A stretch of DNA of 334 bases from NCBI RefSeq assembly GCF_003334765.1, contig NZ_QOWT01000137.1; one strand, written 5' to 3'. Under the pieces are notes generated by a model. The model did not search any database, was not told the DNA's origin, and saw nothing but the letters and a program-made list of their open reading frames with translations. The position numbers were made by a program, and so were the translations under genes. The DNA comes from Escherichia coli (GTDB taxonomy: Bacteria > Pseudomonadota > Gammaproteobacteria > Enterobacterales > Enterobacteriaceae). Position 1 is the stretch's first letter; the number at the start of each line of letters is the position of its first letter. This document shows positions 1 to 334 of the stretch, one piece after another.

Positions 1-30
1 CCGGCTCTGCCATGGGAGGATTGCCAATGA
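1..30 (+). CDS. citD: Citrate lyase acyl carrier protein (gamma subunit), 3' end only; 5' part lies upstream of the window
   Basis: Frame starting at base 1 translates as P-A-L-P-W-E-D-C-Q followed by TGA at 28-30. This matches the C-terminus of E. coli CitD as I recall it (...[11 protein letters not shown]). Position immediately upstream of and overlapping citE fits the known citCDEFXG gene order. Confidence 0.8.
14..20 (+). promoter_or_regulatory. Shine-Dalgarno / ribosome-binding site for citE, embedded in the citD 3' coding sequence
   Basis: GGGAGGA at 14-20 is strongly complementary to the 16S rRNA 3' end (anti-SD CCUCC). It sits 6 nt upstream of the ATG at 27-29, which is near-optimal spacing. 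Confidence 0.7.
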
Positions 31-334
31 TTTCCGCTTCGCTGCAACAACGTAAAACTCGCACCCGCCGCAGCATGCTGTTTGTGCCAGGTGCCAATGC
101 CGCGATGGTCAGCAACTCATTCATCTACCCGGCTGATGCCCTGATGTTTGACCTCGAAGACTCCGTGGCATTGCGTGAAAAAGACACAGCCCGCCGCATG
201 GTTTACCACGCGCTGCAACATCCGCTGTATCGCGATATTGAAACCATTGTGCGTGTAAACGCGCTGGATTCCGAATGGGGTGTTAACGACCTGGAAGCCG
301 TCGTTCGCGGTGGTGCGGACGTTGTGCGTCTGCC
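27..334 (+). CDS. citE: Citrate lyase beta subunit (citryl-ACP oxaloacetate-lyase / citryl-CoA lyase, HpcH/HpaI aldolase-citrate lyase family), 5' part only; continues past the window end
   Basis: ATG at 27-29 preceded by a strong SD. The frame is open through base 334, giving 102 codons plus a partial codon. The translation matches the N-terminus of E. coli CitE as I recall it, including the family-typical RRSMLFVPG and FDLED motifs. Other + frames contain stops (TAA 53, TGA 134, TGA 142, TGA 176, TAA 256, TAA 284). Confidence 0.92.

Follow-up and report, generated by a model that had tools for sequence, protein, structure and literature searches.

The citD-citE boundary of the Escherichia coli citrate lyase operon in a 334-bp window, and a rare second copy of the operon genes

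The citrate lyase genes of Escherichia coli K-12 are arranged as citCDEFXGT adjoining rna, with citAB on the divergent side (PMC2735749). The roles of the subunits and the functions of CitX, CitG and CitC are summarised in PMC10798043, and the enzymology and regulation given here are taken from the literature. According to that summary, the phosphoribosyl-dephospho-CoA prosthetic group of CitD is made and attached by CitG and CitX and is acetylated by CitC; CitF (the alpha subunit) then swaps the acetyl group for citrate to give citryl-S-ACP, and CitE cleaves citryl-S-ACP to oxaloacetate with regeneration of acetyl-S-ACP (PMC10798043). CitT brings citrate into the cell in exchange for succinate. 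The citryl-ACP oxaloacetate-lyase activity of CitE is likewise derived from the literature (PMC10798043), and the gene described below is predicted from its sequence to be the one that encodes it.

A related cluster is present in Klebsiella pneumoniae and at locus II of Salmonella, where the arrangement is citS-oadGAB-citAB and divergent citCDEFG. The structural genes of citrate lyase are homologous to those of E. coli, and the literature describes the same enzyme chemistry for both; the Klebsiella citE is about 73% identical to bases 66-334 of the window, by which we mean the whole stretch of 334 nucleotides analysed here. The two kinds of loci differ in what accompanies the enzyme. The Klebsiella and Salmonella locus II cluster has the Na+-dependent carrier CitS and genes for oxaloacetate decarboxylase, and K. 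pneumoniae is without citX, whereas in E. coli the locus includes citX as well as citT, and no oxaloacetate decarboxylase (oad) gene is found among the 21 annotated features of the 18-kb locus in NZ_CP032204.

The window was compared with complete genomes by megablast, and NZ_CP032204 (strain AR_0013), which matches it at 100% identity, was used as the reference for the surrounding genes. The order there is lipA, tatE, crcB, cspE, pagP, dcuC, dpiA, dpiB, citC-citD-citE-citF-citX-citG-citT, rna, rnk, uspG and ahpF, with dpiA and dpiB on the opposite strand, divergent, upstream of citC. The cit genes are annotated as follows in the coordinates of this locus.

7661-8719, window's strand: citC, ending 14 nt before citD
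8734-9030, window's strand: citD
9027-9935, window's strand: citE
9946-11478, window's strand: citF
11482-12033, window's strand: citX
12008-12886, window's strand: citG
12936-14399, window's strand: citT (citrate/succinate antiporter)

The genes, their order, their strand and their neighbours are the same as those of K-12 citCDEFXGT, which stands between dcuC and rna with the divergent citAB (= dpiBA), and the layout in a K-12-like laboratory strain is also that of NZ_CP032204. The earlier note on this DNA, which was made from the letters only, had placed the window inside a citCDEFXG citrate fermentation cluster and expected it to be preceded by citC and followed by citF, citX and citG, all on one strand. 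The 100% megablast matches together with the flanks in NZ_CP032204 and in the K-12-like strain bear this out, and all four neighbours are where they had been expected in both genomes; neither flanks unrelated to citrate lyase nor best matches outside CitD/CitE were seen. As a minor refinement of the cluster name, the E. coli operon runs on into citT, giving citCDEFXGT, and is preceded by the divergent dpiBA (citAB). Transcription of the operon as a single unit, induced by citrate in anaerobic conditions through DpiAB/CitAB, may be expected; on the level of sequence the pointers to it are the neighbouring divergent dpiB and dpiA and the lack of terminator-like sites in the window. The judgement that the operon is an ordinary and well-described one also holds, as the layout is the published K-12 arrangement.

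The sequence identity, reading frames, family membership, gene order and purifying selection reported here were obtained directly from the sequences and their annotation. The window itself carries the following features.

1-30, plus strand: 3′ end of citD (citrate lyase gamma subunit, acyl carrier protein), the last 9 codons (PALPWEDCQ) and the TGA stop at 28-30, in frame 1
15-19, plus strand: GGAGG, a putative Shine-Dalgarno-like motif within the citD coding sequence, 7 nt 5′ of the citE ATG, its role suggested by position only
27-30, plus strand: ATGA overlap of the citE start (27-29) and the citD stop (28-30), from the sequence and the RefSeq annotation
27-334, plus strand: 5′ part of citE (citrate lyase beta subunit, citryl-ACP oxaloacetate-lyase), codons 1-102 of 302 and 2 further bases, in frame 3

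Starting at the ATG at 27-29, frame 3 runs for 102 codons without a stop and is still open where the window ends; the other two plus-strand frames have 3 and 6 stops. Window bases 1-30 are identical to the last 30 bases of the citD gene of NZ_CP032204, whose end in RefSeq (locus position 9030) is window position 30. With citD at 8734-9030 and citE at 9027-9935, the two genes overlap by 4 nt. This overlap is kept in the island copy of NZ_CP023353.1 (strain 746) and in the cit cluster of plasmid NZ_LR890350, whose citD/citE junction shares only 86.6% identity with the window; citC is immediately upstream on the same strand in both of these and in the K-12-like strain as well. An ATGA overlap is the usual arrangement for translational coupling, and with a GGAGG 7 nt upstream of the ATG it makes coupling of citE translation to that of citD probable, as far as the positions of these elements can indicate. 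The RNA of positions 1-70 across the junction folds less stably than its shuffled controls (z = +1.21), and such weak folding is compatible with an accessible ribosome-binding site.

A further in-frame ATG is present at 12-14, five codons 5′ of the annotated citE start, and would prepend MGGLP to the protein. It could in principle serve as a longer start. In the few upstream bases visible in the window no ribosome-binding site is found for it; RefSeq places the start at 27-29, where the GGAGG stands at a proper distance from the ATG. The citE model aligns to the annotated protein from residue 12 onwards only, and the profile therefore cannot decide between the two starts.

The family of the encoded protein is clear from the profile searches, and the scores also indicate which specificity within the family is to be expected. 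The CitE fragment of the window matches the Pfam family HpcH_HpaI (PF03328) at E = 3.5e-32 (111.9 bits, model positions 1-90 of 221) and the NCBIfam model TIGR01588 citE at E = 1.1e-40 (139.6 bits, model positions 1-91 of 288), and solved structures of the CitE family in the PDB match by sequence at E = 4e-35 and weaker. The curated cut-off of TIGR01588, 443.4 bits, is set for the whole protein, and the fragment falls below it only because it is incomplete; the full-length citE with the identical window sequence (9027-9935 in NZ_CP032204) scores 452.1 bits on this equivalog and passes. Full-length CitD (8734-9030) passes both of its models, with 100.3 bits on TIGR01608 (cut-off 63.5) and 143.7 bits on NF009726 (cut-off 65). 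The HpcH/HpaI family also contains enzymes of the RipC/Ccl type of the itaconate pathway and of the malyl-CoA lyase type, malyl-CoA lyase structures are among the PDB matches, and the fragment matches the RipC_Ccl model at 54.4 bits, so that a CitE-like lyase of one of these other specificities was considered. The citE model, however, scores far above RipC_Ccl both for the fragment (139.6 vs 54.4 bits) and for the full protein (452.1 vs 172.7 bits), it is the only model whose curated cut-off is passed, and the gene is placed between citD and citF with citC, citX and citG nearby. On the scores and the gene context RipC/Ccl or malyl-CoA lyase specificity was rejected, and we consider such a reading hardly credible. 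It is also very improbable, if slightly less so, that the coding sequence hides some further element, for instance a small RNA, a repeat, a promoter or terminator internal to the gene, or a small ORF on the antisense strand. The other frames and the minus strand do contain mechanical ORFs of 20-36 aa, and the window has one imperfect two-copy direct repeat of 23 nt (74%) and one inverted repeat of 10 nt; but both repeats are short, have no more than two copies and were attributed to chance, the search of both strands of the window against Rfam at E <= 10 gave zero matches, the scan of the window for promoter and terminator consensus gave 0 promoter-like and 0 terminator-like sites, and the weak folding of the junction RNA points the same way. 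The small ORFs were rejected on the strong family signal of frame 3 and on the polymorphism, which is synonymous for citE throughout. Compared with the K-12-like strain the window is 98.2% identical, with 6 differences, five of them at third codon positions and one a CTG/TTG exchange, and 6/6 are synonymous in the citE frame. The CitD (WP_000700703.1) and CitE (WP_000622357.1) proteins of the K-12-like strain are identical to those of NZ_CP032204, that is, the protein accessions are the same across strains about 2% apart in DNA, and citE is under purifying selection. Neither RNA families nor promoters, terminators, stable structures or repeats of any significance were found in the 334 bp, and the earlier statement that they hold nothing undescribed is upheld. 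The agreement of reading frames, identity, flanks and family exceeds chance by far.

The window is present at full length in 5422 of the 5426 complete E. coli genomes of RefSeq searched by megablast, at >= 99% identity in 241 genomes and at 95-99% in 5181. The annotation at the matches is always citD and citE, that is, citrate lyase acyl carrier protein followed by citrate (pro-3S)-lyase subunit beta. All 334 of 334 bases are matched at 100% identity in at least 60 records, and this exact allele is carried, for example, by IAI39, CE10 and ST648. Among the 60 perfect matches listed, 53 are in genomes with a single copy, and in AR_0013, the one inspected, the match is the core locus.

Several side observations were made in the same searches. 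No window match whatever is present in 4 of the 5426 complete genomes. Two genomes have their sole window match on a record that bears the label of a plasmid, and in PLSDB several multi-megabase "plasmids" carry the locus; the latter are probably mislabelled chromosomes. In TOE17 (NZ_CP069093.1) the match begins only at base 11 of the window, and the sequence upstream (about 4870-5001, corresponding to window 1-10) is unrelated and holds a gene annotated as "Com family DNA-binding transcriptional regulator" along with further genes of phage type; the annotation shows neither citD nor citC upstream of the match in this locus. A Mu-like prophage or island seems to have integrated here, with one of its ends lying in the 3′ end of citD, and would break up the operon. 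A plasmid-borne cluster was found on NZ_LR890350.1, an IncHI1A conjugative plasmid of 300 kb, where a block dpiBA-citCDEFXGT-rna...rnk-uspG at 4960-18329 adjoins IS26 and IS66. Its dpiBA-citCDEFXGT-rna part has the same gene order as the chromosomal locus, and the block looks like a chromosomal segment captured from another enterobacterial genus. This divergent cluster occurs in 2 of the 5426 E. coli genomes, on a plasmid both times.

The genome search also gave 41 extra window matches, and these led to strain 746 (NZ_CP023353.1), in which the 100% match is located not in the core locus but in an island flanked by insertion sequences. The Citrobacter-like plasmid cluster was rejected as the source of the second matches, being present in 2 genomes only and on plasmids in both; most of them are accounted for by the chromosomal island. 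The island spans 15632-26518 of the NZ_CP023353.1 locus, with the equivalent of the window at 20001-20334. Its order is a divergent GntR-family regulator, an amidohydrolase, an MFS transporter, citC-D-E-F-X-G and a full-length second acnB, without dpiAB and without citT. The best NCBIfam match of the amidohydrolase is 4-sulfomuconolactone hydrolase at 137 bits, which is well under the cut-off of that model. The island and core copies share one stretch of 5.2 kb at 98.56% identity, 7670-12876 in NZ_CP032204 and 18670-23876 in NZ_CP023353.1 (locus coordinates). With its ends 10 nt into citC and 10 nt short of the citG stop, this block includes neither citT nor the promoter region under DpiAB control; the ATG of the island citC follows the stop codon of the MFS gene by 5 nt. 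The junction of citG and acnB is present in 34 of the 5426 genomes and the GntR/amidohydrolase/MFS block in 33 of the 5426, and where this block is complete it always adjoins citC. No description of this combination of genes was found in the literature searched.

The island matters for the origin of the window, since at least five genomes (746, CE2050, TUM14759, ST70 and WP4-S18-ESBL-07) have an island copy whose citD-citE junction matches the window at 100% identity, and in each of them the perfect match stands 3.6 kb upstream of the match to the citG-acnB junction. Core and island copies can both be identical to the window, and therefore the 334 bases cannot assign the locus with certainty. 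If the window came from the island, it would belong to a different operon, one with a divergent GntR regulator, an amidohydrolase resembling LigI or sulfomuconolactone hydrolase, the MFS transporter and the second acnB; citrate lyase would then serve the breakdown of another imported substrate that is converted to citrate, and its regulation would not be by DpiAB. The near-identical duplicated block and the recurrence of both island junctions speak for this origin, but we regard it as unlikely: the island is rare (about 0.6% of genomes), the single-copy genomes make up most of the listed perfect matches, which makes the core locus much more likely by numbers, and in SCU-109, a genome with both copies, the 100% match listed is 2.6 Mb from the island junction and is presumably the core copy. 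An island origin would leave the expected citC, citF, citX and citG neighbours intact, and these are present in either locus. A more far-reaching form of the same idea, in which the window comes from this rare island and the island is an undescribed catabolic operon that recruited duplicates of the core citrate lyase and aconitase almost ORF for ORF for the degradation of an imported compound of the tricarboxylate type, perhaps a lactone, is more doubtful still, and the suggestion of a lactone-forming tricarboxylate as the substrate is a guess and pure speculation.

We are close to certain that the window is the citD-citE boundary of the E. coli citrate lyase operon, most probably at the core locus, in which dpiBA and citCDEFXGT diverge between dcuC and rna. 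No evidence contradicts the citD-citE identification, and the sole uncertainty is which of the two loci the window represents. This boundary is already known and nothing about it is novel. The importance of the finding is small, for the operon belongs to the textbook metabolism of E. coli and the window may be regarded as explained; the rare second copy of the operon, which stands in a different genetic context, may merit a separate look.
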